Shown piece after piece: positions 1 to 22,985 of a stretch of DNA of 26,854 nt. Origin of the DNA: a virus (lineage: Duplodnaviria; Caudoviricetes). The stretch is from the IMG/VR virus record IMGVR_UViG_3300006105_000094, positions 1 through 26,854 of that record. The stretch is one strand, 5' to 3'. How positions within the stretch are numbered: the first letter of the stretch is position 1; every line of letters starts with the position of its first letter. Made by a program: the position numbers and the translations under genes. A model generated the notes under the pieces. The model saw nothing but the letters and a program-made list of their open reading frames with translations, was not told where the DNA came from and did not search any database.

Positions 1-237
1 CTGTACTGATCCGGAGCAAAAAAGCCTGCCCATTTGTTCAACTTGACTAGACTTGTATATATTGGTGCCACCAAAATTAAGAAAAGCACCAGGAGTAGTG
101 GCTGTAGGAATATCCGTAGGCCCAGATATAATTTGAACATTGTGTCCTGCCTTTCGTAAGAGATTAGGTACATGGCGTTTCCATTCGCCAGTGTACCTTG
201 TCTCAACAGCTTCTAGATCAATTAGAAATACGTTCAT
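1..237 (-). CDS. Putative glycosyltransferase (GT-B type), N-terminal part; runs off the window's left edge
   Basis: Not in the ORF track. Manual translation from ATG at 237 is open to base 1: MNVFLIDLEAVETRYTGEWKRHVPNLLRKAGHNVQIISGPTDIPTATTPGAFLNFGGTNIYKSSQVEQMGRLFCSGSVQ. It has an N-terminal beta-strand and 'LRKAGHNVQII', the typical GT-B 'L..GHxV.v' element. Confidence 0.6.
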   Translation of the reverse strand, partial: MNVFLIDLEAVETRYTGEWKRHVPNLLRKAGHNVQIISGPTDIPTATTPGAFLNFGGTNIYKSSQVEQMGRLFCSGSVQ

Positions 238-475
238 TGTAAGGACGTGGATTTTTGCCTAAGTAAGGCTTGCGTTCGCCTGTAAATGGCTTCTTAGGAC
301 GGCGTGTTTTATCAAAGTTACGCCACTGCCAACTTTCTCTGTTGTAGAGGTGAGCTTCATTAAACTCACAAAGTTCTAACCGGCACCAGTTATGAAATGC
401 CTCTAAGTCGTCGAATAATTTAACAACATCTGGACGGTTCTCGAAATAAGAATAATCCTTGTAGTTCTTAGCCAT
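218..475 (-). CDS. Hypothetical protein (85 aa, basic C-terminus)
   Basis: Intact ORF, AAGGAAAG SD-like sequence upstream, overlaps the downstream gene start, in operon orientation. Confidence 0.7.
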   Translation of the reverse strand: MAKNYKDYSYFENRPDVVKLFDDLEAFHNWCRLELCEFNEAHLYNRESWQWRNFDKTRRPKKPFTGERKPYLGKNPRPYNERISN

Positions 476-486
476 TATAGCTTTCC

Positions 487-882
487 TTAATATTTAATAA
501 ATGAACCATTTTCTCCATCTTCGGAGACCTCAATCCAAACCTCACGGTCGGGATACTTTTGTGAAATAATGTCGTACAAATCGTCTGACATCATCTCGCA
601 ACTTTTATAATCTAATTTTAAAACGGCACCGTCACCTGAATACAACGCTTCGAGCCATCGTTTGAATTGGATGAATTCAATGTCTCTGTCATTGTGTGAC
701 ACGCCAATCCACACCCGGAAATGGAAAATGTGACGGTGAGGAGTAGCAAGAAACGATACGTCATACATATCTCCTGTAGCTAAGTTTGGATCTGTTGCAG
801 CCGCTGGATAGCAATGAATGCCTTCCTTCTGGAAGGTAACCCAGATCATTTTGTTTGGTCTAATGTCTTGTTTAATTATCAT
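487..882 (-). CDS. dpdL: QueD/6-pyruvoyl-tetrahydropterin-synthase-like T-fold protein, QueD-paralog (DpdL-like) type
   Basis: Has EGIHxY, LATPHRHIFHF (LxxxHRHxF instead of the QueD CxxxHGH), SCE and a C-terminal EVSEDGENG. Start reassigned to ATG 882, which overlaps the upstream TGA (ATGA coupling). The dpdL assignment rests on my recollection of the published motif. Confidence 0.65.
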   Translation of the reverse strand: MIIKQDIRPNKMIWVTFQKEGIHCYPAAATDPNLATGDMYDVSFLATPHRHIFHFRVWIGVSHNDRDIEFIQFKRWLEALYSGDGAVLKLDYKSCEMMSDDLYDIISQKYPDREVWIEVSEDGENGSFIKY

Positions 883-1418
883 GTTGGTGTATCTTGTGTG
901 TACTGATCCCAATGAGTATACTTGTCTTTACTCATTAAGCTCTGTAAGTGATGTGTCCACACACCTGGATTTGTAGCACCCCAAGTTCGGTCATCCAGTT
1001 TAAGTGTGGCGTTATAGTTGAGTTGATTAATGTAAGGTAACTTAACACTAATCATAGGGACAAAGCGAGGATATTCGTTATAGGCAGACTCTAGTACACC
1101 TTCGATATGTTCAACACCGAAGTCTAGTGACACCCAATAGCCTGCTTTTAGACAACCTATGATAACATCATCCCACGCTTTATATTCTTCGTGACTAATT
1201 GATTTAGGATTAAAACTTTGACTAGTGCCAAAATAAATGTGTTTAATACGTTTAGACTCATCCAGGTATGCCTGTGTGTCATCTGCCTTACGTAGTATTT
1301 CTTCGAGAGGAGGAGTACCTACAACAAACAATGTAAACATACCGTGACAAATAGTATGCTCGACTTCGTAACCTGTAAAGTAGACAATGTCTTGTCTTTC
1401 TTCAGTGTTTAATCCCAT
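879..1418 (-). CDS. Conserved hypothetical protein within the DNA-modification cluster
   Basis: 179-aa globular ORF (GxEVEHT, TLFVVG, HIYFG, TLKLDD, NPGVW), overlapping both neighbours. Confidence 0.75.
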   Translation of the reverse strand: MGLNTEERQDIVYFTGYEVEHTICHGMFTLFVVGTPPLEEILRKADDTQAYLDESKRIKHIYFGTSQSFNPKSISHEEYKAWDDVIIGCLKAGYWVSLDFGVEHIEGVLESAYNEYPRFVPMISVKLPYINQLNYNATLKLDDRTWGATNPGVWTHHLQSLMSKDKYTHWDQYTQDTPT

Positions 1419-2314
1419 TTAATATAACCTCTGCTATAACCACTCGGACGATTAACGCCGTCCGCAAATGCTTGTTCCCACTCTGTGCTTCTATTATACT
1501 CTCTAGTCCAAAAAGAATCAACCTCTAAGTAACCGTTTTCAATAAAGTACTTTGCCATTCGCATACAATCAATAAAAGCAGGATTTCGGGGACTTGGTTT
1601 AATAGTAGTAACAGCTTTCCAAAGTTGACTTTGTGCTTCTTGTTTGGAAACAGCTTTACCAACCCCGTCGATAATTAAAGCATTGTTATTTAGGTTAATT
1701 TGTGTGCCTAGTTCATAATTTCCACTAAGGTCTACAATAACATCGTAATTTTCAATAGTGCTGGATAGTAATTTGTCGCCCCATAGTTCTTTATTACTGT
1801 GTCCTAATACATCTACGTGATAGATATATCCATTAAGACGCATAGTATGATAGGCAACCCAAGCAAGGAATCCACTACCAATAATCAACATACGGGTGTT
1901 TTCATTGCGACCTTGTCTATCTAACAATTGATCCTTAGCTTGATTAATTAAATTCATACCACAAGCTACTGGTTCTAAGATATACTTTGGGCTAGCTTCA
2001 GGAACTACTACAAATTCTTCAATTTTAGTATTATAATAATCAGCATAAGCCGGCTCGCCTCGCGTTGCTACAATATCACCAACCATAACTTTGGCAACAC
2101 CCATTCCAACTTTAGTTACAATACCTAAACCTTCGTGTCCTTGCATGTGTAATGGTAACGGACCAAAGTCGCCCATCATCATATCAATATCACTACGACA
2201 AACACCTGTCATCAAAGCCTTAACTTCAATTTCGTATTGACCAGGTTCTGGTTTATCGTATTCTACTTCTTCGAAATAACCTTGTCCGGTTGTTTGTAGG
2301 CAGTTAACAATCAT
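1409..2314 (-). CDS. Zn-dependent medium-chain alcohol/sugar dehydrogenase (MDR, GroES-like plus Rossmann)
   Basis: GVCRSD and GHEGLG catalytic-Zn motifs, LEP, Rossmann IIGSGFLA. The 4-Cys structural Zn lobe is absent. Start reassigned to ATG 2314 (ATGA overlap with the upstream stop). Confidence 0.85.
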   Translation of the reverse strand: MIVNCLQTTGQGYFEEVEYDKPEPGQYEIEVKALMTGVCRSDIDMMMGDFGPLPLHMQGHEGLGIVTKVGMGVAKVMVGDIVATRGEPAYADYYNTKIEEFVVVPEASPKYILEPVACGMNLINQAKDQLLDRQGRNENTRMLIIGSGFLAWVAYHTMRLNGYIYHVDVLGHSNKELWGDKLLSSTIENYDVIVDLSGNYELGTQINLNNNALIIDGVGKAVSKQEAQSQLWKAVTTIKPSPRNPAFIDCMRMAKYFIENGYLEVDSFWTREYNRSTEWEQAFADGVNRPSGYSRGYIKWD

Positions 2315-3201
2315 AATGTTTCTATCTGTTGATGGATCCAAAGATCCTGGGTTAATTGTTTCTTCCAAAATATTGCTTCGTGCTGACTTAATACAGCATC
2401 TTGTATCATAGTTTGATATGCGTCTTCTGGGCAAAGTCCTAGTTCTACTCGAACTTGACTATCATCTGGCATGGTAAAGATAATAGCACGGTCATCTTCG
2501 CCCAATGTACGCCAATTGGCATCTAATGTCCATGTTCTATTATGACATACATATTCTAAACGGCAACTATCATCTACATCATAGGTTCCGTTTAAATTTA
2601 CAGTACCATAATCTGTGTTAGACACATCTTCTAACAACCAGTTTTGCATTGCGATACTTGATATTTGACGAGATGTTTGGTAATAAGGTTCTAGTACCAT
2701 AAACAAACTTAGCAAGTGTGGCATCAAGTCTCTACTAACTCCGCCAAAGGCTAGTTTCTTTGTAGTAAACCAAGTACCAGGGTTAGGTACTCGATCTTTA
2801 TTGTGCCAGCGTATTTCTACACTTTTAGATTCTTGTGTTAATTTAACTAGATCTTTAATGTTATCACGCCATTGATTATTCTTAACCATCATGAAACGTG
2901 TATAAGGAAACGTCTTAACTAGTGTTTCCCAGATATTACTAGTACTAACACCTGGTTTTTCGATAAACACTATATTAGAACATTTGGCAACTTTTGTAGC
3001 AATATCAAAATGTGTGAAATTAGGAGTACAGATATGTACAGTATCGAACATATGGCAAGCAACAATAGCCGCATCGACTGATTCAAAGTCTGCGCCTTTA
3101 GCAGGATCCTGATCTACAGTAACAACACCGTGACCGAGGTTTTGTAATACTGTGGCATATAAATTGCCAATACCCATTCCAATAATAAGACTAGTTTTCA
3201 T
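2311..3201 (-). CDS. Gfo/Idh/MocA-family NAD(P)-dependent oxidoreductase
   Basis: IIGMGIG Rossmann start, HICTPNFTH, IEKP and GGVSRDLMPH are the hallmark motifs of the family. Confidence 0.88.
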   Translation of the reverse strand: MKTSLIIGMGIGNLYATVLQNLGHGVVTVDQDPAKGADFESVDAAIVACHMFDTVHICTPNFTHFDIATKVAKCSNIVFIEKPGVSTSNIWETLVKTFPYTRFMMVKNNQWRDNIKDLVKLTQESKSVEIRWHNKDRVPNPGTWFTTKKLAFGGVSRDLMPHLLSLFMVLEPYYQTSRQISSIAMQNWLLEDVSNTDYGTVNLNGTYDVDDSCRLEYVCHNRTWTLDANWRTLGEDDRAIIFTMPDDSQVRVELGLCPEDAYQTMIQDAVLSQHEAIFWKKQLTQDLWIHQQIETL

Positions 3202-3451
3202 TTGTAAATTTCTTTCCTTCTTCCCAGTACTTGATCATTCGTTGTACATCTTCCATACGTTCTGTGATAACTTCTGGAGCCGCACGTTCTAATTCTTTTA
3301 GATTATGATAACTAGGATAATGCCGCAAACACCAACGAGCTTTCTCACGTATTTCTTTTGGAATACGTGGAGTTTTTTGAGGATTCATTAGATCCTGTAA
3401 AAACTCCTCAGTTCGTTGTATACTTCTAAATCGTTCGTCAGGTAATGTCAT
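3191..3451 (-). CDS. Small conserved protein resembling the BPSL0761 family
   Basis: MTLPDER...EFLxDL...P.IPKEIR..AR..LRHYP pattern. Likely start is ATG 3451. Confidence 0.6.
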   Translation of the reverse strand: MTLPDERFRSIQRTEEFLQDLMNPQKTPRIPKEIREKARWCLRHYPSYHNLKELERAAPEVITERMEDVQRMIKYWEEGKKFTNEN

Positions 3452-5141
3452 GTACACTAGTCTCTAAAGCGTCTAGTTTATCGGAAACTTCATCACTAAA
3501 GTCTGGTTCTTCGTTTGATTGTACAGTCGTTGTATCCACTTCGTCAAACAAAACGGAAAATTGAGTGCTAGCATTAACCGTTTTCTTACCTGTTGCGCCA
3601 CGTGTTCCAGGAATAGCTTGCCAATATTTGTCATAAAAATCAATAATTGCTATGGCATCTTCTCTAGTATCCGCAGAAAATATAGCTTCTACTATATCTT
3701 TGAAATAAACTCTTGAAAATCTTTCGTCTACTAGCATAGCAGGACATAGTCCTGCGTCATATTGTCGATTGGCTTCTTGTACACTATTCAAATGTAACCA
3801 AACATTATGCCCCATCATGATAGCATAGGTAAAACTATCCCAACTAGTCTTACCTTCTTTGCCAATCTTATTTAGGTCTCCAGGACCGTATATACAAATT
3901 TCATTAACTTTGACACCGTCCATTAAGGGACTAGTAGTGAAAGATTCGAAATGGCCGTCTTGTACTACTACGTCTTGGAATAATCGTGTGTCGCTGGCGT
4001 ATTTTTTGTCATCAAGAGACGGCAACATACGGTAGAGCCATTTTTCTCTGTCTTTGATTTCTGTTTGGACATAGATTTGACCGTTTGCTGTTGCAAGGAA
4101 CGGTGAGGCGCAATCAAAAGAGATGGTAAAGTTTTCATTATGATGTTTCCTTATAGCACGTTGTATGTCAGTTAATAATAATGCCCACTCTAATTTAGAG
4201 GTGCCCAAGAAGTGCATCCAGTCTTGATGACCTTTTTCAAGAAGACCATCGAACTTTAGTGCCACTAATCTACGTAGTACAAGGTCAACGTCGCACATGT
4301 TTTGTCCACCCATAGCCCAGCCGTTAAATGGCTTGTCATATTTGGTAGGATCGCAAAAATCTTTCATTTGCTGATACCAATCTTCTGCTTGTGCGTGATT
4401 CTCGCCCTGTAATACATTTAAAAACTTACAAGCGCCTGTACGATGCTTAATAAAGTATTCATTATTATACTTTGTTGCCGCGACTGCTTGCGGATAATCA
4501 GCAACACCACTATTCTTAGCACCTACTGGACTGCGACCAACCCATGCTGGAATATCAAGTACCATACCATAGTCCATAAGCGTGTCCATCCATGCTAGAA
4601 CTTGCTCACGTTTCTTTTGTGCCGCATCCAACTTTGATTGATAAACTTTTACATGATCAATTTTTGTATATTTCGGATTGCCGTTCTTATCAGTTTTAGG
4701 ATGACCGGTAGGATGTAATTGAGGAATTAACTCAACACCTTTGGCTTGTGCTTCAGCCATACGTTGTGCTACTACAGGGACGTTAGGATCATTCCATTCG
4801 CCTTCCCACACACCTTTACCAATCTGGAATCCACCAGAGTCACCTAATACCCAACTAGTCGAACGGTCTCTGTTACGAAACATGTCTTCGCTCGGATCAG
4901 GTTTAGACAAATCTAAGTTAGCATGACCTGCCGAATACAAGCAATGATCATAATAAAATGCCGCATTAGGATCCAAATAGTTCATTGCTTCAATGCCTTT
5001 AGGGCCAAAGCTCTTTGGAATACGTGCTGGATCTACATAGTTACTGTAGCGTTGTTTGCCTATGTAAGTACTATAGAATCCAGATGTTGCTGGAAGAAAA
5101 TATGCGTAATCGTTTTGTGTAGCTGTTAAGTTTTTATTCAT
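3438..5141 (-). CDS. dpdA: TGT-fold guanine transglycosylase, DpdA-like (7-deazaguanine insertion into DNA)
   Basis: TGT motifs in order: GDSGGFQ, MVLDIP, LNVLQG, GWAMGG, HFLG, SFDCASP (nucleophile Asp). No CxCxxC Zn site of tRNA TGTs is evident. Lies next to the clamp/polymerase genes and a QueD paralog. Start reassigned to ATG 5141, directly after the upstream TAA. Confidence 0.8.
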   Translation of the reverse strand: MNKNLTATQNDYAYFLPATSGFYSTYIGKQRYSNYVDPARIPKSFGPKGIEAMNYLDPNAAFYYDHCLYSAGHANLDLSKPDPSEDMFRNRDRSTSWVLGDSGGFQIGKGVWEGEWNDPNVPVVAQRMAEAQAKGVELIPQLHPTGHPKTDKNGNPKYTKIDHVKVYQSKLDAAQKKREQVLAWMDTLMDYGMVLDIPAWVGRSPVGAKNSGVADYPQAVAATKYNNEYFIKHRTGACKFLNVLQGENHAQAEDWYQQMKDFCDPTKYDKPFNGWAMGGQNMCDVDLVLRRLVALKFDGLLEKGHQDWMHFLGTSKLEWALLLTDIQRAIRKHHNENFTISFDCASPFLATANGQIYVQTEIKDREKWLYRMLPSLDDKKYASDTRLFQDVVVQDGHFESFTTSPLMDGVKVNEICIYGPGDLNKIGKEGKTSWDSFTYAIMMGHNVWLHLNSVQEANRQYDAGLCPAMLVDERFSRVYFKDIVEAIFSADTREDAIAIIDFYDKYWQAIPGTRGATGKKTVNASTQFSVLFDEVDTTTVQSNEEPDFSDEVSDKLDALETSVHDIT

Positions 5142-5143
5142 TA

Positions 5144-5494
5144 TTATACCAAATGTTGGGCTAATATCATTACACTTATCCAGTACCATATGGTATTAAA
5201 ACCAACTAGTGTAGGCAAAGCCTTTTTACGACTTGCCCAAATAAGTGTAGCACTAGTAATCAATGTTAAAAAATAAAATTGCCAAATTTGAATACCAAAA
5301 ATTAGTCCGGGAACAATAATAATGGCTTTAGCCGCCCAGGAAACAAATTCAACAGTATTATAATCTGTCCAGTATTCTTTCTTAAACCACATTCCATAAC
5401 ATTCTTTAATAGCCGGCCATGTAATGTGATTATATAAAATAGCTATAGTTACAATACTAAAAATTGTTGCGTATAAAATTTGATCAAGAGTCAT
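5144..5494 (-). CDS. Small multi-pass membrane protein
   Basis: About 4 hydrophobic segments. Start reassigned to ATG 5494, 1 nt after the clamp stop. Confidence 0.7.
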   Translation of the reverse strand: MTLDQILYATIFSIVTIAILYNHITWPAIKECYGMWFKKEYWTDYNTVEFVSWAAKAIIIVPGLIFGIQIWQFYFLTLITSATLIWASRKKALPTLVGFNTIWYWISVMILAQHLV

Positions 5495-5495
5495 A

Positions 5496-6227
5496 TTATT
5501 TGCTCTGTGCTGGTAAAATATATTCGTATTCAGCAATTCCGCTATCTACAGTAATTTGTAGTGCGCCAACGTCTGCGATACGAACAGTCTTATCGCCTGT
5601 TAAATTCAAGATGCTTTGAACTTGAGTAACTGGCCATGCCCATGCTTGTTTTAGTTTGCCAGTAACTCCTGATTGGAATACAAAAGTTCCTGCGTGTGTT
5701 GTAGCATCACCAAACTTGAATACTAAGTTTCCGTTGTCTGTACTGACTTGAAAGACTTTTTCTTCTGTGTGTGCTGCACTTTGGAATTTTAATTTTTGAA
5801 TACTAGCCATAGATGGAGTAAACTCGATATCCCACTTAGTGCCTTTAAATTTAACAGACTTCATTTTTTCATTAATAATATCGCTATTCATAAAACGATA
5901 ATCATTTTCAAAGTCACCGGCACCGTTGGCAAAGTGTAATCCTGTTGGAATGTCTTCACCATTACGATTTTGTACAACAACATCGATAGTAAAGTTTTCT
6001 TTATATTCTGGACACTTCAAATGAATATCTAACTTATTTAGGTCTGGCATACCAAATGTGCCTTCTAAATTGTCGATTGGTTCCTTTGTTCTAGCGTTAA
6101 GAATAACACTACGATCTTCAGCCATTGATTCAATAGCTGTTTCTTTGTCGCTAGCACTAACTTTAACCAAAGGTAAAAATCCTAGGCTGTGTGTATGTGC
6201 TACTAAATCTTGTAAAAAGTCTTTCAT
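5496..6227 (-). CDS. Putative DNA polymerase sliding clamp (T4 gp45-like)
   Basis: About 243 aa, beta-rich two-domain pattern, C-terminal LQITVDSGIAEYEYILPA resembling the clamp terminal strand, near the polymerase. GGAG SD precedes ATG 6227. Confidence 0.65.
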   Translation of the reverse strand: MKDFLQDLVAHTHSLGFLPLVKVSASDKETAIESMAEDRSVILNARTKEPIDNLEGTFGMPDLNKLDIHLKCPEYKENFTIDVVVQNRNGEDIPTGLHFANGAGDFENDYRFMNSDIINEKMKSVKFKGTKWDIEFTPSMASIQKLKFQSAAHTEEKVFQVSTDNGNLVFKFGDATTHAGTFVFQSGVTGKLKQAWAWPVTQVQSILNLTGDKTVRIADVGALQITVDSGIAEYEYILPAQSK

Positions 6228-6247
6228 AAGTTTCTCCATGTTTGTAT

Positions 6248-6275
6248 ATTATATAGGTTTTTCTGACAATGTCAA
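6248..6275 (-). promoter_or_regulatory. Sigma70-type promoter TTGACA-N16-TATAAT for the clamp/dpdA operon
   Basis: Plus strand shows ATTATA at 6248-6253 and TGTCAA at 6270-6275. Both hexamers are perfect consensus. Confidence 0.8.
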
Positions 6276-7045
6276 GGATTTTTCCTAACCTTTTTGTTAT
6301 ATTTTACAGCTGATTCTACCAATGTATGTGATATTTGTTGTCTATCACAATAGTGTATAAAGGCGCTTGTATCTTTAGGAAAACAAGCTCCACCAAATCC
6401 TCTGCTCATATCAGGTCCTGGTACCATCATATGGCTATTACCAATACGCTCATCGTGTGTCAATACTTGTCTAACTAGACTATAATCAGCACCGTTCTTT
6501 TCGCACACATCGTACAATTGATTAAAGAATGCCACTTTGACACTTAGGAAACAATTGGTAGCATATTTGATTGTACTAGCTTCGGTAATACTAGTATTAA
6601 AAATAATACGTAGTTTAGTCAAAGAATCTTTAAAAAGAGCAGACCAAAATCCTTCTGGATCATCTCCGCCCATAACCATATATTCTTGATTGGCAAAATC
6701 TTCATTAGCTGATACAGCACGTAAAAATTCTGGACTATAACAAATACTGTGTTCTGGATATTTTTGTAATATCGTTTGTAAATAGTCTGGAGGTATAGTT
6801 GATTTAATCAGCACTGGTAAGTATACCGGTACTTGATCAAGTACGTTAATTACTTGATTAATATCGCAATCGCCTAATTGATCACTAGGCGTACCTACGC
6901 AAACAACAATACCATCTGCGTCGGCAAAGTCCATTACTTTGTAATCACCATATTTAGGATCAACAATATGAATCCTGTTTTTTTCTTGTATGGCATTGCC
7001 AACAGCCTTGCCAACAAATCCGTATCCTGCAATTATAATTTTCAT
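6272..7045 (-). CDS. ugd: UDP-glucose/GDP-mannose dehydrogenase family protein (short form)
   Basis: GYGFVG, VCVGTP, IKSTIPP, SPEFL, KYATN..L..K..F.N and catalytic GFGGACFPKD. At 257 aa it lacks the usual C-terminal domain. Confidence 0.88.
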   Translation of the reverse strand: MKIIIAGYGFVGKAVGNAIQEKNRIHIVDPKYGDYKVMDFADADGIVVCVGTPSDQLGDCDINQVINVLDQVPVYLPVLIKSTIPPDYLQTILQKYPEHSICYSPEFLRAVSANEDFANQEYMVMGGDDPEGFWSALFKDSLTKLRIIFNTSITEASTIKYATNCFLSVKVAFFNQLYDVCEKNGADYSLVRQVLTHDERIGNSHMMVPGPDMSRGFGGACFPKDTSAFIHYCDRQQISHTLVESAVKYNKKVRKNP

Positions 7046-7046
7046 A

Positions 7047-9716
7047 TTAAAACTCGAATAAACTGTTAAATGTATTTTTTTCTTCTGTGCTAGTAATATT
7101 CCATTCTAGTACACCTATTAAGTTGTCTAGCTTTTTATCAATGATAGTAGCTTCCATTTCAGCATGATCAAAAGGTAAATCTTTGAACCACTGCGGTAAC
7201 CTCAGTTCGTCTACAGGGTAAGCGACTGATGTATAGCCTAACGGATTAGGCTTGAGTTTACAAACAATAACTTTAGCACCATCTGTAATACTCATAGAAT
7301 ATTTGTCATTGTACATACGTTTTAGCGTGTTCCAATTGATACTAGCACGAACATGTCCTGGCATATTAGTCTTACCGGCTTTGGCTTCTTTGCCTTGATA
7401 CTCGGTAATCTTGTTAGCACGTTTAGGAGATCCTTTTTCCCAACCTGGTCGAGCTTTAAATTTGATACGGAATGCGCTGATATGATCCAATACATCCTGT
7501 TCATCTTTACCCATTAGAACCATTTCAAGAACTTCACTTAAAAAGTCTTGAATAAATTCTGGAGTATCACTACGCTTCAAGTCCAAGCCCATAGCTTTAA
7601 TCTTACCAGCTTTACCATCTATGTCAGTACGTTTGCCTTCTTTGTCATAGTAAAGAACAGCATAGCGTTTCTTAGTAATAAACAAACTTTTAGATCCGAC
7701 AATTTCACGACCTGCTTTAATAACTTCTCCACGGGTCTTTGGCACATGAAACGTATCCAACATAAACTGTGGGAATGTTTGATTTACTTCTTCTCCGATG
7801 GTATCATACAGTTGAATTACCGTTTCTTTCGTCCAGGGAATTCGTCCGGCTTCAATGTCCTTCTGTAAAGTGCGATAAGCACTAAAATAACAACTATCAG
7901 TATCACCATAAATTACCGCCTTTCCTACGTGATCATACTCTCCGGTAATGATCTCATTTACTTTACTCGCCATATGTTTTGCGATTTGGCGACCGACCAG
8001 CGTTGTTGATTGTCCGATTCGTTTATCAAAGAATCTACAACCGCTATTAAGAATAGCACCGTACAAGCTATTAAGATTAATCTTCTTAACAAGTTGTCGT
8101 TTATCCCAATACTCTTCTTCCACTTTATTCCCAGCATTTATAGCCTCCTTTAACTTGGCCTGCATCTCTTTACGTTCAGCATACCAGCGTTTTAGTAGCC
8201 CTGGAATAATACCTTCCTTTTCATGGGTGAAGATTGTCCCGTTACTTGAAAGCATCCAAGGCTGATTGCTTTCAAATATTAATCTATATACTTCGGCGGC
8301 ACTTAGTACATCGCTAGATCCATCTTCCCAGTCGATAGTAATGTCTGTGCCAATCTCTTGTGCCATCACAGCTTCGTATTCGTCAGTACCAAATTTACCT
8401 TCCCAAGCAGCCGCAAATGATTTACCTTTGGCAATTTGTAGCTCAATGTATTCTTCTGTCTTAGTTTGACGTAACTGTCCAATAATAGTTTCCGGACCCA
8501 TGTTTAACGCACGAATCGCAGATGGATATAGTGAGTTAATATCTAATGATCCTACCCAGTCTTGAATACCTGTTTTAGGAAATGCTACATACGCACCTGC
8601 CGCACCTTCGTTGTCTTCACGTTCGCTCATCTTAGTACGATTAGGAACTTGGAAACCTCTACGATGTGCTTCGTTAATAATAGCCTGTTCAGTCACAGCT
8701 ACAGCACCCATTGTAGTTTGTAGTAGTACTGTATTTTCATGTGCCAACGTGTTAGTTAGATCCATGAATTTTAACTTCTTGTCTAAGTCGTCAAGCAGTT
8801 TACAGTCATTAATGTTATATTCAACAAACGTTTTAAAGTCATTGTTGTACAACTGATCCAATGTACCTTCGTATTGTGTTTTACGTTTGCCCAATTCATA
8901 TTCAGCAATAGCATCTAGTCTATAACTATGACGTTCTTCATATGTGTACTTACGATATAGTTCGAGATAGTCGAGGTGAACACGACCAATATAATCATAA
9001 GTTGTACTAGTACGACCATACTTTTCATATTCACGTTTTTTAGGAAATTGATTAAACAAACAAAAGCGTCTAGTATCTTCTTTTGATAACGCTTTTGTTA
9101 CTCTATTTGTAGTGTATGGAATATCAAAGCCTTCCGAGTTCCAACCACTTAATATATCTGCGTCTTTAATCAAGTCAAGGAATGTGTCCAACAAGTCTGC
9201 TTCGTTGTCGAACAGCATAGTATTAGGAAAATCTTTAACCATTTCCTTAGCATCTTCCATACTAAGCTTCTTAGGAGGAATAGCTAAACAAACCATTGTT
9301 TCTAACCATTGTAAGTAGACAGCAATCGCAGTAATTGGCATAAATGCGTCGTCTGGACTAGCATAGCCACGCTCTGGATCGAAGTCTACCTCAATATCGA
9401 AAAATGCTACATTTAGTTTAGGAGCATCTTGATTTAAGTAGTGTTCGCTTAGTGTTACAAAGATTGGATTAATATCCGATTCGTATAAAGTCTTGCCACT
9501 GTTAATGGCTTGTTCTTTGCGTAGTTCTTTTGTGTTTTTACAAACGATACGAGTGAGTGGATCACCGTAAATTGATTGAAATTTCCCTCTGGGATCTTTC
9601 ACATAAAATGTATGACGTACAGGAATATCTCTAAATTCCCTGTCGCCTTTTTTATTGCGTTCAACAACTCGAACGATATCGTTCTCGCGGTCAAACCATG
9701 CGTCTACATAAGACAT
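7047..9716 (-). CDS. polB: Family B DNA polymerase (T4 gp43-like)
   Basis: Exonuclease motifs FDIE, GWNSEGFD and YNINDC. Polymerase motifs LDINSLYPS, KINLNSLYG, YGDTDS and KKRY. Confidence 0.97.
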   Translation of the reverse strand: MSYVDAWFDRENDIVRVVERNKKGDREFRDIPVRHTFYVKDPRGKFQSIYGDPLTRIVCKNTKELRKEQAINSGKTLYESDINPIFVTLSEHYLNQDAPKLNVAFFDIEVDFDPERGYASPDDAFMPITAIAVYLQWLETMVCLAIPPKKLSMEDAKEMVKDFPNTMLFDNEADLLDTFLDLIKDADILSGWNSEGFDIPYTTNRVTKALSKEDTRRFCLFNQFPKKREYEKYGRTSTTYDYIGRVHLDYLELYRKYTYEERHSYRLDAIAEYELGKRKTQYEGTLDQLYNNDFKTFVEYNINDCKLLDDLDKKLKFMDLTNTLAHENTVLLQTTMGAVAVTEQAIINEAHRRGFQVPNRTKMSEREDNEGAAGAYVAFPKTGIQDWVGSLDINSLYPSAIRALNMGPETIIGQLRQTKTEEYIELQIAKGKSFAAAWEGKFGTDEYEAVMAQEIGTDITIDWEDGSSDVLSAAEVYRLIFESNQPWMLSSNGTIFTHEKEGIIPGLLKRWYAERKEMQAKLKEAINAGNKVEEEYWDKRQLVKKINLNSLYGAILNSGCRFFDKRIGQSTTLVGRQIAKHMASKVNEIITGEYDHVGKAVIYGDTDSCYFSAYRTLQKDIEAGRIPWTKETVIQLYDTIGEEVNQTFPQFMLDTFHVPKTRGEVIKAGREIVGSKSLFITKKRYAVLYYDKEGKRTDIDGKAGKIKAMGLDLKRSDTPEFIQDFLSEVLEMVLMGKDEQDVLDHISAFRIKFKARPGWEKGSPKRANKITEYQGKEAKAGKTNMPGHVRASINWNTLKRMYNDKYSMSITDGAKVIVCKLKPNPLGYTSVAYPVDELRLPQWFKDLPFDHAEMEATIIDKKLDNLIGVLEWNITSTEEKNTFNSLFEF

Positions 9717-9732
9717 AAATTTTCTTCTCCGA

Positions 9733-9777
9733 TGTCACTTAAGGCTGACAAATACCTTCATGCGAATTATGGCTCGC
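9733..9777 (-). promoter_or_regulatory. Tandem stem-loops in the polymerase 5' leader (putative translational operator)
   Basis: Minus strand has GCGA-GCCATAAT-TCGC and TGTCA-GCCTTAAG-TGACA, both with 8-nt loops, just upstream of the GGAG SD (9727-9730). Confidence 0.55.
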
Positions 9778-9793
9778 TAACCTTTCCTAGCAA

Positions 9794-9800
9794 TATTTAT
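9794..9800 (-). promoter_or_regulatory. Putative T4-like late promoter (ATAAATA) upstream of the polymerase
   Basis: TAAATA core at the intergenic boundary. The same motif recurs at other gene-block starts. Confidence 0.45.
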
Positions 9801-10057
9801 TAGATACGTTTTGTGATATCTAAAATTGCTTCAATTTCTTCCCAATCAGCATTATAATTTTGCCAATCGCCTTTATGTGCGATCTTAATTGCTTTGGTAA
9901 TAACGCTTGGTTTGATTTGTAATTCTTCGGCAACTGCCTTGACAGTTTCCTTTAAGCCTTCTTGTAAGTCTTCAACTTCACGTAGGACTGTTGAGCCTTC
10001 ACTAATTAAACGCTCTAGTTTTGCTTTTTCTTCTGCACCGTATGAACGACCGCCCAT
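9800..10057 (-). CDS. Small dsDNA-binding protein (T4 DsbA / GapR-like helical fold)
   Basis: 85 aa, amphipathic helices, 'LKETVKAVAEELQIKPSVITKAIKIAHK' pattern, AGGAG SD, directly upstream of the polymerase. Confidence 0.6.
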   Translation of the reverse strand: MGGRSYGAEEKAKLERLISEGSTVLREVEDLQEGLKETVKAVAEELQIKPSVITKAIKIAHKGDWQNYNADWEEIEAILDITKRI

Positions 10058-10081
10058 GTAAATCTCCTAATGTATATGCCT

Positions 10082-10110
10082 ATTGTATACTACTTATACT
10101 ACAAGAGCAA
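10082..10110 (-). promoter_or_regulatory. Sigma70-like promoter TTGCTC-N17-TACAAT for the replication operon
   Basis: Plus strand ATTGTA at 10082-10087 and GAGCAA at 10105-10110 in an intergenic gap. Confidence 0.6.
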
Positions 10111-10124
10111 CCTATATGAAATTT

Positions 10125-11021
10125 TTAATAGCCAAAACTTTTAATTAAGTTTTCAGCAAGATGCGTAGATTCGAATCTCTTATCTGGAACTGGAATAAAT
10201 CCTTGAGGAGGAGTTGCGCCAGCGTCTTTTAGTGCGGCAAGAGTTTTCTTACCAATCAATCCGTCGGCTACTAATCCATGTGATTGCTGGAATGACTTGA
10301 TTTCGGCATCAGTGGTTGGCCATTTGGTTTGACCAGCAACTCCTGCGTCGGGAGCTTTTGATAAGGTACTTGGATCTATAGTTATAAAGTCAGTAGATCT
10401 GCCATGCTTTTTCCAATAACCCATTTGACCAGTACGTGGATTTTTAACTAATGGTTCGCCATTCGGACCTTTGCCATCTTTGCCTACGTGTGCTTTGCTA
10501 TCGTATACGTGATCAACAATAGCATTAATAAGTTGATCGATGCCTTTTTCACCTAAGAAATAACTAGCGGCCATACCGCCTACACCGCCACCGATAAATC
10601 CTGCCAATGCTCCGGCACCGCCAGTAACAGCTCCGGCAATAGCTCCACCAATAATCGATCCTACCCAGAACAATCCAAAGTTAGCAACAAGATTAGTAAC
10701 TATTTTAGTAACTTGTGCTCTGTATTCTGTTTCAGGAGTATCTACGGGTATAGCTTGTATTGATTCCCAACCGTCCCAAATCTCAGCGGCAATAGCTATT
10801 GGTAATGCGGCCTTACCAAAAAAACCTTTAATACCGCCCCACATCTTACTCATTACACTTGCTTCTTTGCCAACATCGGCGGCAACAGTTGTAGCTACAG
10901 GAGCGGCTTGCGATGCTTTCGCGGCCCAGTAAGGACTATTACTATAGGCGTTGGTTGCGCCAACAGCTACTTCGTCTAATTCTGCTTCGTCAATTTTATT
11001 GATTAATTCGCGGATATTCAT
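10125..11021 (-). CDS. Putative virion protein with glycine-zipper hydrophobic hairpin and C-terminal peptidoglycan-binding domain
   Basis: GSIIGGAIAGAVTGGAGALAGFIGGGVGGMAA hairpin. IKSFQQSHGLVADGLIGKKTLAAL matches the PG_binding_1 pattern (FQ..hGL..DG..G..T). N-terminus is MNIREL. Confidence 0.75.
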   Translation of the reverse strand: MNIRELINKIDEAELDEVAVGATNAYSNSPYWAAKASQAAPVATTVAADVGKEASVMSKMWGGIKGFFGKAALPIAIAAEIWDGWESIQAIPVDTPETEYRAQVTKIVTNLVANFGLFWVGSIIGGAIAGAVTGGAGALAGFIGGGVGGMAASYFLGEKGIDQLINAIVDHVYDSKAHVGKDGKGPNGEPLVKNPRTGQMGYWKKHGRSTDFITIDPSTLSKAPDAGVAGQTKWPTTDAEIKSFQQSHGLVADGLIGKKTLAALKDAGATPPQGFIPVPDKRFESTHLAENLIKSFGY

Positions 11022-12148
11022 TTTTTACTAGGTACACAATTAGGAACTGTGCGTCCGCCTTTCTTTTTAGTGCCCACTGGATGATATCCTGTCCAGCATG
11101 GGTTTGAATTCTTTAATGATTTTTTCTTAGCGTTGGCTTCTTTAATAGGATTAGTTTCGCCTATGTTTTTATCTATATTATGAACTCTACGTCCACCACC
11201 TTTGCGTATCTTGGCAAGTTCTTCTATACCATGACGGATCTGTTCTATATTCATAGCTAGTTCTGGAAAATGACTAGCAATACTTTCCCATACAACTAAA
11301 TTATCGCTTTCTGCTGATTTAGCCAACTCTCTAAGTTGACCACGTGCTCGCATAATACGTGCTTCTATACTAGCAGGGTTTACTCCTTGATGACTATGAA
11401 TAGTACTAGCTGTTGGGTTTTCTTTGTCAAAATCTAACGGAGTTTCTGCTACCGCACTTTGTATGCCCGGGCCAACACCGCCGGTGAATCCCATGCTATG
11501 ATCTGGAATTTCGTTTTCATTAACTGGCTTACCTTTCTTAACACGTTTAGGTAATGTTTTTAATTTTTTACCAGTATCGGCTTTGTTAAACTCTTTAGCA
11601 ACTGATTGCTTAATACCAACTTTCTTAGCAAACTCTGGATTGTGAGCCGCGGCAGCCATTGTACGTGCTTGTGCTTGACTAACCGAACGTTCGTCTAATT
11701 CTAATCCGTGATGCCCGAATGAATTTTGATATGTTTTATGATCTAAATCTAATTCTTGAACAGCTCGTTGTTTAGCGGCTTGTTCAATGCGATCCTTTTT
11801 ACCTTCTTTCATCATAACACGTTCAGCAATAACTGACGCATATTGATTCATTATCTGACGCTTACGATCTTTTTCTTGGGAAATTTCTTCTTCAACTGTA
11901 TGAAAGTATTTGCCAATAGTAAGCTCACGTCCGATAGGTTTACTAACAGGCTTATCTTCTTGGGGCGCTTGATAGTGTTGCATTGCCATTTGTACTGGCA
12001 ATGATACTTTATGAGGATTACCTTCGTTAAGGATTTGAATACTGGCATTCTTATCTACAATGGATAAGAACTTAACCATATCACTAGCACCTTCTACAGG
12101 TTTAGAAGATGCTCCGTCTAACGCCTGTAGAATGCGCTTCATGTCCAT
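11018..12148 (-). CDS. Modular, charged hypothetical protein (putative internal head protein)
   Basis: Short modules (SQAQARTMAAAAHNPEFAKKVGI; NPCWTGY..VGTKKKGGRTVPNCVP) separated by [ILVM]-x-E sites. Confidence 0.7.
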   Translation of the reverse strand: MDMKRILQALDGASSKPVEGASDMVKFLSIVDKNASIQILNEGNPHKVSLPVQMAMQHYQAPQEDKPVSKPIGRELTIGKYFHTVEEEISQEKDRKRQIMNQYASVIAERVMMKEGKKDRIEQAAKQRAVQELDLDHKTYQNSFGHHGLELDERSVSQAQARTMAAAAHNPEFAKKVGIKQSVAKEFNKADTGKKLKTLPKRVKKGKPVNENEIPDHSMGFTGGVGPGIQSAVAETPLDFDKENPTASTIHSHQGVNPASIEARIMRARGQLRELAKSAESDNLVVWESIASHFPELAMNIEQIRHGIEELAKIRKGGGRRVHNIDKNIGETNPIKEANAKKKSLKNSNPCWTGYHPVGTKKKGGRTVPNCVPSKK

Positions 12149-12154
12149 TGGAGT

Positions 12155-13906
12155 TTATCCCAATAGTTTGCGTGTCAATGCGCGGATCTGATCAACTTCA
12201 CGTGATTCAACAATCGCTGGTTTTTCAGAACGATTTAAACGAGCTAACTGATCTTGCATGCGTGAAAAATCTGTAGACTCTTTAACAGTCTCTTTCTTTT
12301 TGTCAGCAACTGCTTTCTTCATTGGCTCTTTCTTGTCACTGTCTTTGTCCATGTCTAAGAAATCTGGCTTAGTAGCTTTTGCTTTTTCAGCAATATACGC
12401 AGTAGTTTCTTTGATGTTCTTCCACATAGCGGCTGCGGCAATTTTCTCGCCTTTCTCACCACCACCAGCTTTCTTAGCTAGTTTAGCAAAACCTTTACCT
12501 GGCTTACCAATGTCTCCACCTGCTTTGGCTTTTTTAACTGTAGCAGATTTCTTAGCGGCACTTAATCCAGCACTCGGCTTCCCTTTTGAACTTTCTCTCA
12601 TAGGATTAGCTTGCCCTTGTGGCATAGCCGTATTTGATTTTGAGTATCCACCTGTTGCTGAACCTGAATTTAATCCAATAACTGTACCTACTGGAATTGG
12701 TTGACGCGGATCAATTCCTGGATTGTTAGATATAATATCTTGAACAGTTGTTTCCTTCATCTTAGCTAAAGCTTCTACAGTAATACCCGGTTTATCAATT
12801 TTAACTGTACCAGTTACTTTGTCAGTGTCGTATGAGCCATATGGACTTTTACTTTCTTTGAATGGCTTACCTGATTTAGCGGCAGCCTTAGCACGTGAAC
12901 CCCATACTTCGTCTTTATCACTTTCTACTTTGCCATCGCCATCGTAATCTTTATCAGCTTTCTTTTCTTTAGCTTCTTCCATTTTCTTACCAAACTTCTC
13001 GCCATTCTTCATGCCCCATGTGTTGCCTGAGTGTTTAGGTAATTTGATATCGTTGCCACGTTCAGCTTTCTTAGTTGCGGCATCTTTAGCTTTAGCATGA
13101 GTCTTAATACCCTTGCCTGACTTTTCTTCTGCTTCGCCGTCGTCGGCATAGCTAGTGTTCTTATGTACAACACCTGTGTGAGTCTTAGTTAACTCGCCGG
13201 TACGAGTTTTCTTAGTATCACCGACTTTCATTTCGCCCTTACCTTTTGAAGTAAACGCATTTTCGGCTTCTTCGTCTACTTCTGTTTCTGGGCTCATTTG
13301 TCCATCCATACGCTTATGAGCGGCTTTAGTAGCTTTGATCATTGTATTGTATTTGGCAACTTTACCTTTTACATGAGCTGGAATTGGTTTTGGCTCTTCG
13401 TAAACCATGCCTGTTCCTCCGCACTCTGTACAAGGACGCTCACCGCCGCTTAGAATACCTTCTTCAACTTTGTGCTCATGCTTGCCTTTCATCTTTTCAG
13501 CGTCAGCTTTCTTAAGCTCTTTCATCTTATCTTTTGCTTCGGCTAACAATTCTTTAATTTTCATTTTTTGTCCTTCGCTTAGTGTATCGCTGTTGTCTAA
13601 ATGATGTCCATACTCGCTGAACTTCATTTCATACTCTAAATAGTGATAAACACTAGCGATGTAATCTGCGGCTTTAGTAATCTTAGCCTGTACCCATGCT
13701 TCCATTTGATCATCATCGCTGATTTGTTGGAATAGCTTGTGTGAATAATTAGCTAGTTTATATAAATCAGCTTTAGCCATAGCACCTTCACGGTCTACTT
13801 CGCCGTTACTTGATCCTAATGCTTGTGTTGGTTCTGCGCCTGCGTCTGGAGCTGGTGCTCCTGCGTCTGGGCTCATTGTTGGGTCTAATTCTGGTGGCAT
13901 GTTCAT
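12155..13906 (-). CDS. Lys/Glu-rich modular protein with LysM-like and DxDxDG motifs (putative internal head protein)
   Basis: TVEALAK...TTVQDIISNNPGIDPRQPIPVGTVIGL (LysM-like), DKDYDGDGKVE and DMDKDSDKKE (EF-hand-like loops), CTECGGTG. GGAG SD upstream. Confidence 0.7.
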   Translation of the reverse strand: MNMPPELDPTMSPDAGAPAPDAGAEPTQALGSSNGEVDREGAMAKADLYKLANYSHKLFQQISDDDQMEAWVQAKITKAADYIASVYHYLEYEMKFSEYGHHLDNSDTLSEGQKMKIKELLAEAKDKMKELKKADAEKMKGKHEHKVEEGILSGGERPCTECGGTGMVYEEPKPIPAHVKGKVAKYNTMIKATKAAHKRMDGQMSPETEVDEEAENAFTSKGKGEMKVGDTKKTRTGELTKTHTGVVHKNTSYADDGEAEEKSGKGIKTHAKAKDAATKKAERGNDIKLPKHSGNTWGMKNGEKFGKKMEEAKEKKADKDYDGDGKVESDKDEVWGSRAKAAAKSGKPFKESKSPYGSYDTDKVTGTVKIDKPGITVEALAKMKETTVQDIISNNPGIDPRQPIPVGTVIGLNSGSATGGYSKSNTAMPQGQANPMRESSKGKPSAGLSAAKKSATVKKAKAGGDIGKPGKGFAKLAKKAGGGEKGEKIAAAAMWKNIKETTAYIAEKAKATKPDFLDMDKDSDKKEPMKKAVADKKKETVKESTDFSRMQDQLARLNRSEKPAIVESREVDQIRALTRKLLG

Positions 13907-13924
13907 AACTCCGTTGTCTTTATA

Positions 13925-13930
13925 TATTTA
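13925..13930 (-). promoter_or_regulatory. Putative late promoter (TAAATA)
   Basis: CTAAATATATA on the minus strand, overlapping the upstream stop and about 20 nt before ATG 13906. Confidence 0.5.
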
Positions 13931-14590
13931 GCGTCTTTTGATGACTACTGACTCTTTTGGCTGACCAAATAAGCTGGCGCCCATATCTAATCCGTTCTTA
14001 GCAGTTCCATCACTATTTTTAGGCTGTACAACCTTAGGCTGTGCTGGTGCTTTTTTACCTGATCCTGTGCTAGGACTGCCTAAATAACTACGTTTTCCAC
14101 GTGATTTACCAGGACTTAATTGTGGCGCATCTACAGTTCCAATGTTAGCGGCACTTGTAGCACCCGCTGTAGCTGTTTCTTTAATATCTTTTTTCTTCTT
14201 CTTAGCAATAGCAATAGCGGCCTGTTGTGCGGCGTTTGCGGCTTCTGCTACACCTTGTGGTTTACCAAATGGATGTACTTCGACCCATTTACCGCCTTGA
14301 TTTTGAATCCATTTACCTTGGTGATATTTGCTTTTTATAATATTATGCACTCTTAGTGCGGCTTCTATACCATCTCTGTAGCCTAAATTACGTGCTTCGC
14401 GTTCTTGATGCCCGGCAATCATGTTTTGTTTAAGTCTGCCTTCATGTGGATCATATCTGTACCAAAGATTGGCTTCGTCATTTCCGCCACGCAAATCGTT
14501 GCCATCGCTGTCATAATAGTTTGTAAAACTACCGTGTCTGCCTTCTACTAATTCTTTAGTATTAAATCCCGTTAAGTCTTTAATTTTCAT
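13928..14590 (-). CDS. Modular hypothetical protein (putative internal head protein)
   Basis: MKIKDL start; modules bounded by LVE/G, VAE/A and IKE/T; basic C-terminus. Confidence 0.7.
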   Translation of the reverse strand: MKIKDLTGFNTKELVEGRHGSFTNYYDSDGNDLRGGNDEANLWYRYDPHEGRLKQNMIAGHQEREARNLGYRDGIEAALRVHNIIKSKYHQGKWIQNQGGKWVEVHPFGKPQGVAEAANAAQQAAIAIAKKKKKDIKETATAGATSAANIGTVDAPQLSPGKSRGKRSYLGSPSTGSGKKAPAQPKVVQPKNSDGTAKNGLDMGASLFGQPKESVVIKRR

Positions 14591-14817
14591 TTTTTAATTC
14601 CCCTGAATCCAGTGCCTACGGCACGTTCGCCATTCATAAACTTAGGTAAACTAAACCACAACTTGAACCATTCTTCAGTGCCAGGTTGTATATTTTGTTC
14701 ACGCATAATCTTTGCTTTCTCTGTACCAGTTATACTGATATTACTTCCGCCGTAAGGTTGTAGGCCTTTAAACTCGTTAATGCCTGCTAACTTCTTAAGA
14801 CGTGCTATTTCATCCAT
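14587..14817 (-). CDS. Small hypothetical protein (IARLKKLAGI motif)
   Basis: Coupled by TAATG and ATGA-type overlaps on both sides; IQPGTEEWFKLWFS motif. Confidence 0.7.
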   Translation of the reverse strand: MDEIARLKKLAGINEFKGLQPYGGSNISITGTEKAKIMREQNIQPGTEEWFKLWFSLPKFMNGERAVGTGFRGIKK

Positions 14818-15191
14818 TATACACCGTACTTATTCTTTTTAGATTTAGCTACTGGACTAACTTTATGTGTATCGTCTGGTTCAGCACTTTTAGCCCAAGG
14901 TAAAACTTGATCATGTTCTGTAGGCACAGCTTTACGTGCCTGTTTAAACATATTATGTTCTACTTCTGTAAAAGGATGTTGTGTCCAATAAGGACCCATC
15001 CAACTTTCATGATCTACATCAATTTGTTTATTTGAGCCATCACTCATAGCTAATGCTATACCGGTGCGCAACTGATGGTAGTTAGGATAAAATCCACCAG
15101 GATCGCGATCTCTACTAACACCATTGTGTACACTTGCGTGTTGTTTATGGTGTTTTCCAGTACGTTCGGAAAGAAATTCTTTAGCTCGCAT
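14817..15191 (-). CDS. Hypothetical protein, paralog of the C-terminal domain of the upstream nucleotidyltransferase
   Basis: MRAKEF start and VSPVAKSKKNKYGV end match the internal MRAREF and terminal VSPVAKPKKNKYGI of 15191..16456. Confidence 0.75.
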   Translation of the reverse strand: MRAKEFLSERTGKHHKQHASVHNGVSRDRDPGGFYPNYHQLRTGIALAMSDGSNKQIDVDHESWMGPYWTQHPFTEVEHNMFKQARKAVPTEHDQVLPWAKSAEPDDTHKVSPVAKSKKNKYGV

Positions 15192-18312: not shown

Positions 18313-18314
18313 TA

Positions 18315-18686: not shown

Positions 18687-18732
18687 TTTTAAGCCCGTAA
18701 CGTGATATCAGCAGATGACTCTGCGGTTAGAG

Positions 18733-18739: not shown

Positions 18740-18754
18740 CGCTTTTGTTGGGCT

Positions 18755-22979: not shown

Positions 22980-22985
22980 AGTCGT

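Follow-up and report, generated by a model that had tools for sequence, protein, structure and literature searches.

Background

In the phage deazaguanine systems described so far, the enzymes FolE, QueD and QueE convert GTP to 7-carboxy-7-deazaguanine (CDG), a route established in published work, and transglycosylases of the DpdA type exchange guanine in DNA, which is established for subfamilies other than the one considered here. In the accessible part of Cui et al. 2023 (PMC10516641), phage phiST, whose DNA carries plain 2'-deoxy-7-deazaguanosine (dDG), has FolE, QueD, QueE, DpdA and DpdL, a protein with the motif LxxxHRHxF, and no QueC; the decarboxylation of CDG to 7-deazaguanine by DpdL is proposed there and unproven, and none of the eight deazaguanine DNA bases reported carries a sugar. 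Here we describe a related locus at the left end of a 26,854-nucleotide stretch of viral DNA (Caudoviricetes; IMG/VR record IMGVR_UViG_3300006105_000094, positions 1 to 26,854; hereafter the window), in which genes of this pathway are joined to a glycosyltransferase (GT) and other sugar-enzyme genes. Judged by its genes, it represents a form of phage deazaguanine modification that is real, widespread and so far undescribed. What was directly observed, namely gene content, the intactness of catalytic motifs and co-occurrence, points with somewhat better than even probability to a QueC-less DpdL/DpdA pathway with a built-in GT that would put a sugar-bearing 7-deazaguanine into phage DNA and thereby block host nucleases.

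The second system of immediate interest is that of the Pseudomonas phages of the PA5oct/Paride group. PA5oct DpdA3 (QCG76197) and DpdL (QCG76199) are entered in Data S1 of Cui et al. (PMC10516641), and a deazaguanine system in this phage is also noted in the accessible text of PMC7824862. Its DNA resists five restriction enzymes, from which the authors infer a modified G, the base not being named in the part of PMC12191111 available. One detail of the restriction pattern deserves mention. The ApaLI site contains neither GA nor GG. It is thus not covered by the 'GA and/or GG' motif given in that part of PMC12191111, and the modified context in PA5oct may be wider.

Results

Over its left 9.7 kb the window carries, on the minus strand, genes that abut, with gaps of at most 32 bases, or overlap, in the order DNA polymerase, UDP-glucose dehydrogenase (UGD), clamp-like protein, membrane protein, DpdA-like protein, an 88-aa protein, a Gfo/Idh/MocA oxidoreductase (Gfo), a medium-chain dehydrogenase (MDR), a 179-aa protein (p179), a T-fold protein, an 85-aa protein and the start of the GT. 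The initial annotation had seen a DpdA-like transglycosylase (of the tRNA-guanine transglycosylase, TGT, type), a QueD paralogue with LxxxHRHxF and four sugar enzymes joined to clamp and polymerase genes, and all of these do lie on the minus strand in one operon; the gene it did not name, p179, is the closest partner of Gfo and MDR. The folE and queE genes, for which it proposed a check to the left of the window, are present in contig L001 (loci and contigs are numbered with L, genomes with G), which is 100% identical to window positions 1-15144 and continues leftward with a complete 365-aa GT (L001:14908-16005), a cupin-like gene, a phosphoribosyltransferase, HIT, FolE and QueE. Near-complete relatives measure 356-383 kb. 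The window's own genome is a fragment, its QueD and QueC content being taken from five related genomes: QueD occurs in all five, and queC, likewise raised by the initial annotation, is above cut-off in none (one weak match in G004).

The DpdA-like, T-fold and GT proteins of the window have no Pfam match of their own and were identified via relatives, and sequence searches of Pfam, PHROG, NCBIfam and PDB supplied no name for the DpdA-like protein, DpdL, the GT or p179. The transglycosylase (3438..5189, likely start 5141, minus strand, like every feature given below up to position 9716) is a long DpdA of the PA5oct type, assigned by homology and motifs and belonging to the core module. At 568-583 aa, it has matches in 13 of 50,697 phage records, namely Vibrio phage 2.275.O, Sinorhizobium phage Phosso and 11 members of the PA5oct/Paride group. 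The PA5oct match, QCG76197.1, is 31% identical to the window protein over 98% (E 1e-65) and has the entry DpdA3 in Data S1 of Cui et al. (PMC10516641). DSGGFQ, LDxP, LQG, HFLG and S[FY]D are present in all 62 distinct close relatives. The catalytic set (DSGG, LD, QG, HxLG and the nucleophile Asp), which we take to be the counterpart of the TGT motifs, is near-invariant in 106 homologues; one family member matches Pfam TGT at E 4e-4, below cut-off. In hhalign comparisons the window protein (568 aa) scored 94% against a DpdA2-type protein and 83% (E 1e-5), a weak likeness, against the founding DpdA3 of phiST (259 aa), and because of this weak resemblance the DpdA3 class as listed is heterogeneous. 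The T-fold protein (487..882), also a core member, is by homology DpdL, the QueD paralogue proposed as CDG decarboxylase: its LATPHRHIF conforms to LxxxHRHxF, which replaces CxxxHGH and is kept in 36 of 36 close relatives, and it matches 29 phage records that include the DpdL proteins of ACP17 (54% identity), PA5oct (56%), BCSR5 and phiST (33%, E 4e-9).

The same long DpdA occurs in a different setting in Vibrio phage 2.275.O (L082:14905-21931), beside QueF, YhhQ, QueC-like, glutamine amidotransferase-like and FolE genes and with no GT; the next gene encodes a 370-aa protein with a weak amidoligase match, which is not the GT described below, and the cluster is a candidate for an amide-linked preQ1 hypermodification. 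In L338, L340 and L342 (phiST, Ahp1 and D479), which have no GT, a short DpdA3 of 259-290 aa lies by a nucleotide-kinase-like gene and by a second gene that resembles MazG or dUTPase, an arrangement that may reflect incorporation via the nucleotide pool.

The window edge cuts the GT gene (1..237), leaving the N-terminal 79 of 365 aa of a GT4-like protein (retaining GT-B type), the third core member. HAGSY, HRxxxEK and ETLGIxxxE are present in 31 of 31 close relatives, and His115, Arg221, Lys226, Glu273 and Glu281 are invariant in 102 of 102 aligned members (23-84% identity); we take these to represent the EX7E motif, the phosphate-binding Arg/Lys pair and the conserved His of a donor-binding site. 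PF00534 is matched by 28 of the 102 (best E 1e-16), protein-atlas neighbours carry the name glycosyltransferase, and the family spans at least 8,000 sequence clusters. GT-B folds include non-transferases, and the window copy, which is not among the 28, has no match at threshold in Pfam, NCBIfam or PDB (best PDB sequence hit E 0.03), so that the protein might transfer no sugar and serve DpdA as an accessory or epimerase-like factor, the DNA then containing a known deazaguanine. With all donor-binding motifs invariant and several kinds of sugar-tailoring genes recurring nearby (in other lineages the slot of the pair described below is occupied by a PIG-L deacetylase or a nucleotidyltransferase-cupin), we regard this as improbable.

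The GT matches 22 phage records, of which five lineages were inspected, BUDD and five PhiXhv/Ep records being left out. It lies between dpdA and dpdL in PA5oct, after dpdL in Phosso, and behind dpdL, together with a second GT, in cyanophage BUCT-ZZ01 (E 2e-35); in ACP17, X1 and BCSR5 it adjoins a different transglycosylase, DpdA2-listed or DpdA2-like, within a FolE/QueE/DpdL cluster. All six are cultured phages. Scans with the single ACP17 and Paride proteins returned one and no loci, and alignments were needed: two alignment scans of viral contigs, from which the best 80 of 581 and the best 80 of 577 matches were taken, yielded 159 loci, or 77 clusters at 80% identity, and counts were made on the 47 that have 6 kb or more of sequence to either side. 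QueE, FolE or QueD accompanies the GT in 47 of 47, DpdL in 43 and a detected DpdA in 41; p179-like proteins are present in 27, Gfo and MDR in 10, never singly, and UGD in eight. Clustering at 60% identity (n=20) gave 20 for QueE/FolE/QueD, 17 for DpdL, 15 for DpdA, nine for p179-like, three for Gfo and MDR and one for UGD. The converse does not hold, as the DpdL phages phiST, RHph_I1_18, Ahp1, Bakedbeans and D479 (5/5) have no GT genome-wide, with positive controls detected in three genomes. By sequence, then, the GT is a constant component of the deazaguanine module, and DpdL phages need not have one. Its placement inside a DpdA/DpdL pathway by the initial annotation has thus passed the co-occurrence tests, on a sequence basis; co-occurrence with dpdA is borne out across unrelated phages for GT and DpdL, and for Gfo and MDR in 20 of the 21 clusters described below, the pair being absent from most GT lineages.

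These counts also bear on whether the sugar genes serve another target, such as 5-hydroxymethylcytosine (hmC), virion proteins or the host surface, and merely hitchhike in a replication block. Phage GTs acting on virion proteins and host surfaces are known (PMC12619734, accessible part), and a short UGD is common near unrelated GTs; the GT, however, lies near deazaguanine genes in every sampled cluster, in several unrelated layouts. No C5 methyltransferase was found in five of five genomes (nine of 14 controls were detected), and a thymidylate-synthase-family gene is missing from three related contigs and from ACP17; no hmC acceptor is therefore evident. For the locus as a whole we consider such a diversion highly improbable.

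Several observations concern the surroundings of the GT. X1/BCSR5-type GTs follow PAPS-reductase-like and PIG-L deacetylase-like genes (L086:8335-11104, L087:8155-11095, L170-L176, L222), and the same loci encode a 143-155-aa protein resembling p179; the PIG-L neighbours suggest an N-acetyl-hexosamine donor in this clade, possibly giving a deacetylated amino sugar. A second GT-like gene (L343:3388-4731 in BUCT-ZZ01, L250:6590-7993, L097:11959-12963) may indicate a disaccharide. Insertions in the slot (L004:12704-16044; L110:6085-7317; L191:5562-6323; L199:6566-7972; L222:5464-6180) comprise a class III aminotransferase, a nucleotidyltransferase-cupin fusion and radical SAM proteins, with a putative 513-aa flavoprotein-like ORF and putative oxygenase-like ORFs in addition. 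In the L063:14908-19003 region a 219-aa endonuclease-like ORF, which is probably an intron, interrupts the GT. Between GT and folE, L001:17374-18638 carries a xanthine-guanine phosphoribosyltransferase-like gene and HIT, seen in 30 and 19, respectively, of the 47 clusters, which could recycle the guanine released by DpdA.

The MDR (1409..2314, 301 aa, zinc type) matches Pfam ADH_N (E 4.8e-10) with ligands C39, H60 and E61 present, and the Gfo (2311..3201, 296 aa) matches GFO_IDH_MocA (E 2.5e-6) with GxGxG, EKP and GGxxxDxxPH. Among close relatives MDR retains CxSD and GHE in 43 of 43 and the Rossmann glycine motif in 42 of 43, and Gfo retains GxGxG, EKP and GGxxxDxxxH in 47 of 47; retention in the MDR-anchored set is partly circular, the scan patterns having contained the motifs. 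Full-length homologues of both in cultured phages are confined to 11 PA5oct-group records, where Gfo, MDR and p179 form a trio about 26 kb from dpdA. The PA5oct Gfo has no GxGxG or EKP and the MDR no Cys and His zinc ligands, and PA5oct was consequently rejected as a test of the pair, its copies being without catalytic motifs; only the GT is testable there. An MDR-anchored scan, for which the best 80 of 412 viral matches were used, gave 21 clusters flanked by 5 kb or more at both ends: DpdA, DpdL and GT are found in 20 and UGD in two, the exception being L323, a 39%-complete genome in which no GT was found. Among 185,579 species genomes MDR has two matches, both metagenome-assembled contigs. 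The clusters fall into three layouts, two of them unrelated to the main one. In L097 (QueD-QueE-DpdA-FolE-Gfo-MDR-GT-Pol-DpdL-GT2) the pair immediately precedes the GT, and in L250 (QueD-QueE-FolE-DpdL-Gfo-GT2-MDR-GT-DpdA) Gfo and MDR flank the second GT; p179 was not found in either, both being fragments. MDR was not found in the GT-positive Phosso, ACP17, X1, BUCT-ZZ01, G004, G005 and G008. On this sequence evidence Gfo and MDR are an optional pair almost confined to the deazaguanine module.

We then asked which gene the pair follows, using 185 loci with DpdA, p179, DpdL and GT, of which 102 (53 with Gfo and MDR in the locus, 49 without) were kept after thinning at 88% GT identity within label. 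The fewest changes in presence of the pair were 2 on the p179 tree, 5 on DpdA, 10 on the clamp, 17 on the GT and 22 on DpdL, shuffled labels requiring 34 on average and 26-28 at minimum. A common set of 50 loci gave 2 for p179, 4 for DpdA, 7 for the clamp, 9 for the polymerase, 10 for the GT and 13 each for DpdL and FolE, and IQ-TREE trees gave 2 (p179) and 21 (DpdL). Residues 65-66 of p179 (879..1418), which is recognised by its homologues, its predicted structure and a split into two types, read TS beside an intact pair in 92 of 109 distinct sequences (13 untyped, two CG, two TG, no AN), and AN in 57 of 58, with one untyped, where the slot is visible and holds no pair; PA5oct p179 is of the AN type, alongside its degenerate Gfo and MDR. 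L219, the one outlier of the p179 tree, combines a p179 of the TS type with an intact Gfo-MDR about 107 kb distant, and once this locus is relabelled a single change suffices. As a linkage control, the 88-aa gene, a short gene in a small sample, needs 5 changes for the 5 pair-less among 27 loci, and p179 and DpdA 1 each. At the sequence level the pair thus tracks p179 and DpdA and not the GT, and the 88-aa gene does not track it; shared descent of the cassette accounts for part of the signal. The alignment columns agree: the best GT column follows the pair at 0.62, no stronger than the clamp and polymerase background (0.64 and 0.63), compared with 0.98 for p179.

Since the pair follows p179 and DpdA rather than the GT, Gfo, MDR and p179 could instead act on the base, changing either its substituent at C7 or the side chain of a pterin, with the GT decorating the resulting acceptor; the zinc dehydrogenase, for instance, could turn a 7-formyl group into a hydroxymethyl acceptor. 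QueE binds pterin and deazapurine, and p179 is possibly a QueE-like barrel without the iron-sulfur motif. Its predicted structure (pLDDT 92) has three QueE structures in the top seven hits, tied with STAS domains, at Z 6.4 (rmsd 3.2, 104 aligned), 5.9 (4.2, 124) and 5.5 (4.6, 130) over nearly the whole length; none reaches Z 8, the level that would mean more than a common arrangement. Foldseek found no match at E 0.001, the p179-QueE profile comparison (hhalign) was not significant, CxxxCxxC is absent from the sequence, and the protein atlas yielded no usable match. The PA5oct group has homologues of p179, as does ACP17, where the gene precedes dpdA2; a Phosso gene annotated 'glycosylase' was rejected as p179 on comparison. 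Against a role of the pair in making the acceptor stand, besides the weakness of the QueE likeness, the complete genomes that keep a GT with intact motifs and have no Gfo and MDR, and the 91.5% identity between the GTs of L001 (pair present) and L078 (pair absent from the slot); from these it follows that the GT acceptor cannot depend on the pair, and we hold this alternative to be unlikely.

The UGD (6272..7045) stands apart. The nucleotide-sugar dehydrogenase named in the initial annotation is supported by a match to UDPG_MGDP_dh (E 5.9e-24) and by the catalytic motif GGxCxPKD, in a short form only: its 257 aa match positions 73-297 of the 413-position model with no C-terminal Pfam match, and it is not a full-length UDP-glucose 6-dehydrogenase, the C-terminal UDP-binding domain being absent. 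The short form has matches in 103 phage records, in most cases next to unrelated GTs and commonly in Microbacterium phages; it was not found in PA5oct, Phosso or ACP17 and is present in both near-complete relatives. A distant UGD (33-35%) near folE in L021, L026 and L027 hints at some link. Membership of the Gfo and MDR pair was rejected, no co-variation being detected (nine independent pairs, sign test p about 1, low power). UGD is by this sequence evidence loosely linked and assorts independently of the pair, and for UGD alone a function outside the module stays a fair explanation. The view of the four sugar enzymes as one pathway accordingly finds no support, UGD assorting on its own and the pair tracking p179 and DpdA and not the GT.

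The scheme that we favour begins with FolE, QueD and QueE converting GTP to CDG and DpdL decarboxylating it, as proposed in the literature, to 7-deazaguanine. With a host nucleotide sugar as donor, the GT would then move a hexose or amino-hexose onto deazaguanine, as the free base or in DNA, a step that the conserved motifs and gene linkage make on balance probable; attachment would most plausibly be at the free C7 position or at N2. After transfer, Gfo might oxidise one sugar hydroxyl to a ketone and MDR reduce it with opposite stereochemistry, with p179 as an adaptor that would bind the deazaguanine glycoside or the two enzymes and pass the product to DpdA; this redox inversion is offered tentatively, and the GT would remain unchanged on loss of the pair because Gfo and MDR act after transfer. 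DpdA would insert the modified base into DNA, and UGD, an independent extra, may in some lineages convert the sugar into a uronate by oxidation. In its boldest form, which is possible and rather doubtful, the scheme describes a widespread family of aquatic phages with the first sugar-bearing purine in DNA, a glycosyl-7-deazaguanine whose sugar would be diversified by swappable cassettes, Gfo and MDR inverting a hydroxyl via a ketone and p179, a stripped QueE paralogue in TS and AN forms, reading two sugars for DpdA.

The same enzymes might act off the DNA, the GT glycosylating a free pterin or deazapurine and the glycoside staying a small molecule (storage, side product or nucleoside analogue) while the DNA contains plain dDG. 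The Gfo and MDR families usually have small-molecule substrates, and a DNA-binding GT would not be required. Huimycin-type 7-deazapurine glycosides arise when a GT glycosylates the free base (bioRxiv 10.64898/2026.04.15.718813, accessible part), and YcjS and YcjQ act on glucosides (PMC11543891, accessible part). The GT nevertheless directly adjoins dpdA in ACP17, X1, BCSR5, PA5oct and L250 and is located in replication blocks, and the tracking of the tailoring pair by p179 and DpdA ties that pair to the insertion step; we judge the small-molecule alternative unlikely, if less so than the others.

Several points weigh against a sugar-bearing base in DNA. The main difficulty is the acceptor: because plain 7-deazaguanine has no hydroxyl, unusual transferase chemistry would be needed, and no enzyme of the GT4 type is known to C-glycosylate a ring of this kind. 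In charge the GT is net acidic (46 D+E, 35 K+R), the Gfo and MDR matches name no substrate, and 34 of the 47 GT clusters share one Pol-clamp context, that of one large phage group, and are not independent. The DpdA pocket motifs show no difference with and without Gfo and MDR, which does not favour a DpdA that reads the altered sugar. PA5oct carries one thymidylate-synthase-family gene, and no control was detected in the search for Tet/JBP. Finally, according to the accessible part of PMC10516641, attempts to show DpdL activity in E. coli did not succeed. A glycosylated base, if true, may explain why the DpdL and DpdA of ACP17 gave no product there (same source), since the genes cloned did not include the GT and p179 of that cluster.

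The remaining genes of the operon are an 85-aa basic protein (218..475), lineage-restricted; the 88-aa protein (3191..3457), of the BPSL0761 family (NF041728 above cut-off); a small membrane protein (5144..5536), sporadic across relatives; the sliding-clamp-like protein (5496..6239; 31% identity, E 7e-44, to a Phosso protein annotated as sliding clamp); and, as context, a family B DNA polymerase (7047..9716). Free-standing endonuclease-like ORFs of 150-210 aa lie between p179 and dpdL in L010, L018, L029, L033, L056 and L061. Window positions 10125-26630 encode low-complexity virion-like proteins, a ClpA-like ATPase, peptide deformylase, DnaJ, a holin, spanins and a GH19 endolysin, a content that is ordinary for such giant phages.

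Discussion

Known phage DNA glycosylation systems, the GTs acting on hmC and 5-hydroxycytosine (T4 alpha- and beta-GT; Pyle et al., bioRxiv 10.1101/2023.12.21.572611; PMC13326640; accessible parts), resemble this locus in combining a GT with optional sugar remodelling, including uronic and other sugars, and differ in their acceptor, a hydroxylated pyrimidine. In the genomes searched, neither a dCMP hydroxymethylase nor a C5 methyltransferase with a dioxygenase, the gene content that marks an hmC-GT cluster, was found, the thymidylate-synthase-family gene of PA5oct aside. The word 'deazaguanine' does not occur in the accessible text of Pyle et al. (bioRxiv 10.1101/2023.12.21.572611), PMC13326640 or PMC12619734; Cui 2023 has no word beginning 'glycosyl' in its main text and no 'glycosyltransferase' in its supplement, though the GT lies by the listed PA5oct and ACP17 dpdA and dpdL genes. 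Glycosylated deazaguanine in DNA was found nowhere in the literature searched; subscription journals and bioRxiv supplements, which were outside reach, may hold PA5oct mass data. Phage DNA glycans in that literature sit on pyrimidines, and a glycosylated purine, if true, would be a new class of DNA base.

YcjS and YcjQ are one Gfo and one MDR enzyme. With YcjR they interconvert glucoside and guloside in E. coli, the two sugar dehydrogenases working via a 3-keto glycoside (PMC11543891, accessible part); the present pair is like them by description only, and a YcjR-like epimerase was not seen in the operon. HuiG of the huimycin pathway likewise glycosylates a 7-deazapurine, for a secondary metabolite and, in the accessible part of bioRxiv 10.64898/2026.04.15.718813, from clusters without dpdA. 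The phiST cluster, so similar in its CDG and DpdL genes, differs in its 259-aa DpdA3 and its kinase-like and MazG-like genes, and contains no GT, p179, Gfo or MDR. PA5oct and Paride share the order clamp-DpdA-GT-DpdL-phosphoribosyltransferase-QueE and possess a trio of genes homologous to Gfo, MDR and p179; they differ in the distant placement of that trio, in the degenerate Gfo and MDR and AN-type p179, and in having no UGD. If the reading of a glycosylated 7-deazaguanine is true, it would give an identity to the modified G of these PA5oct-like phages.

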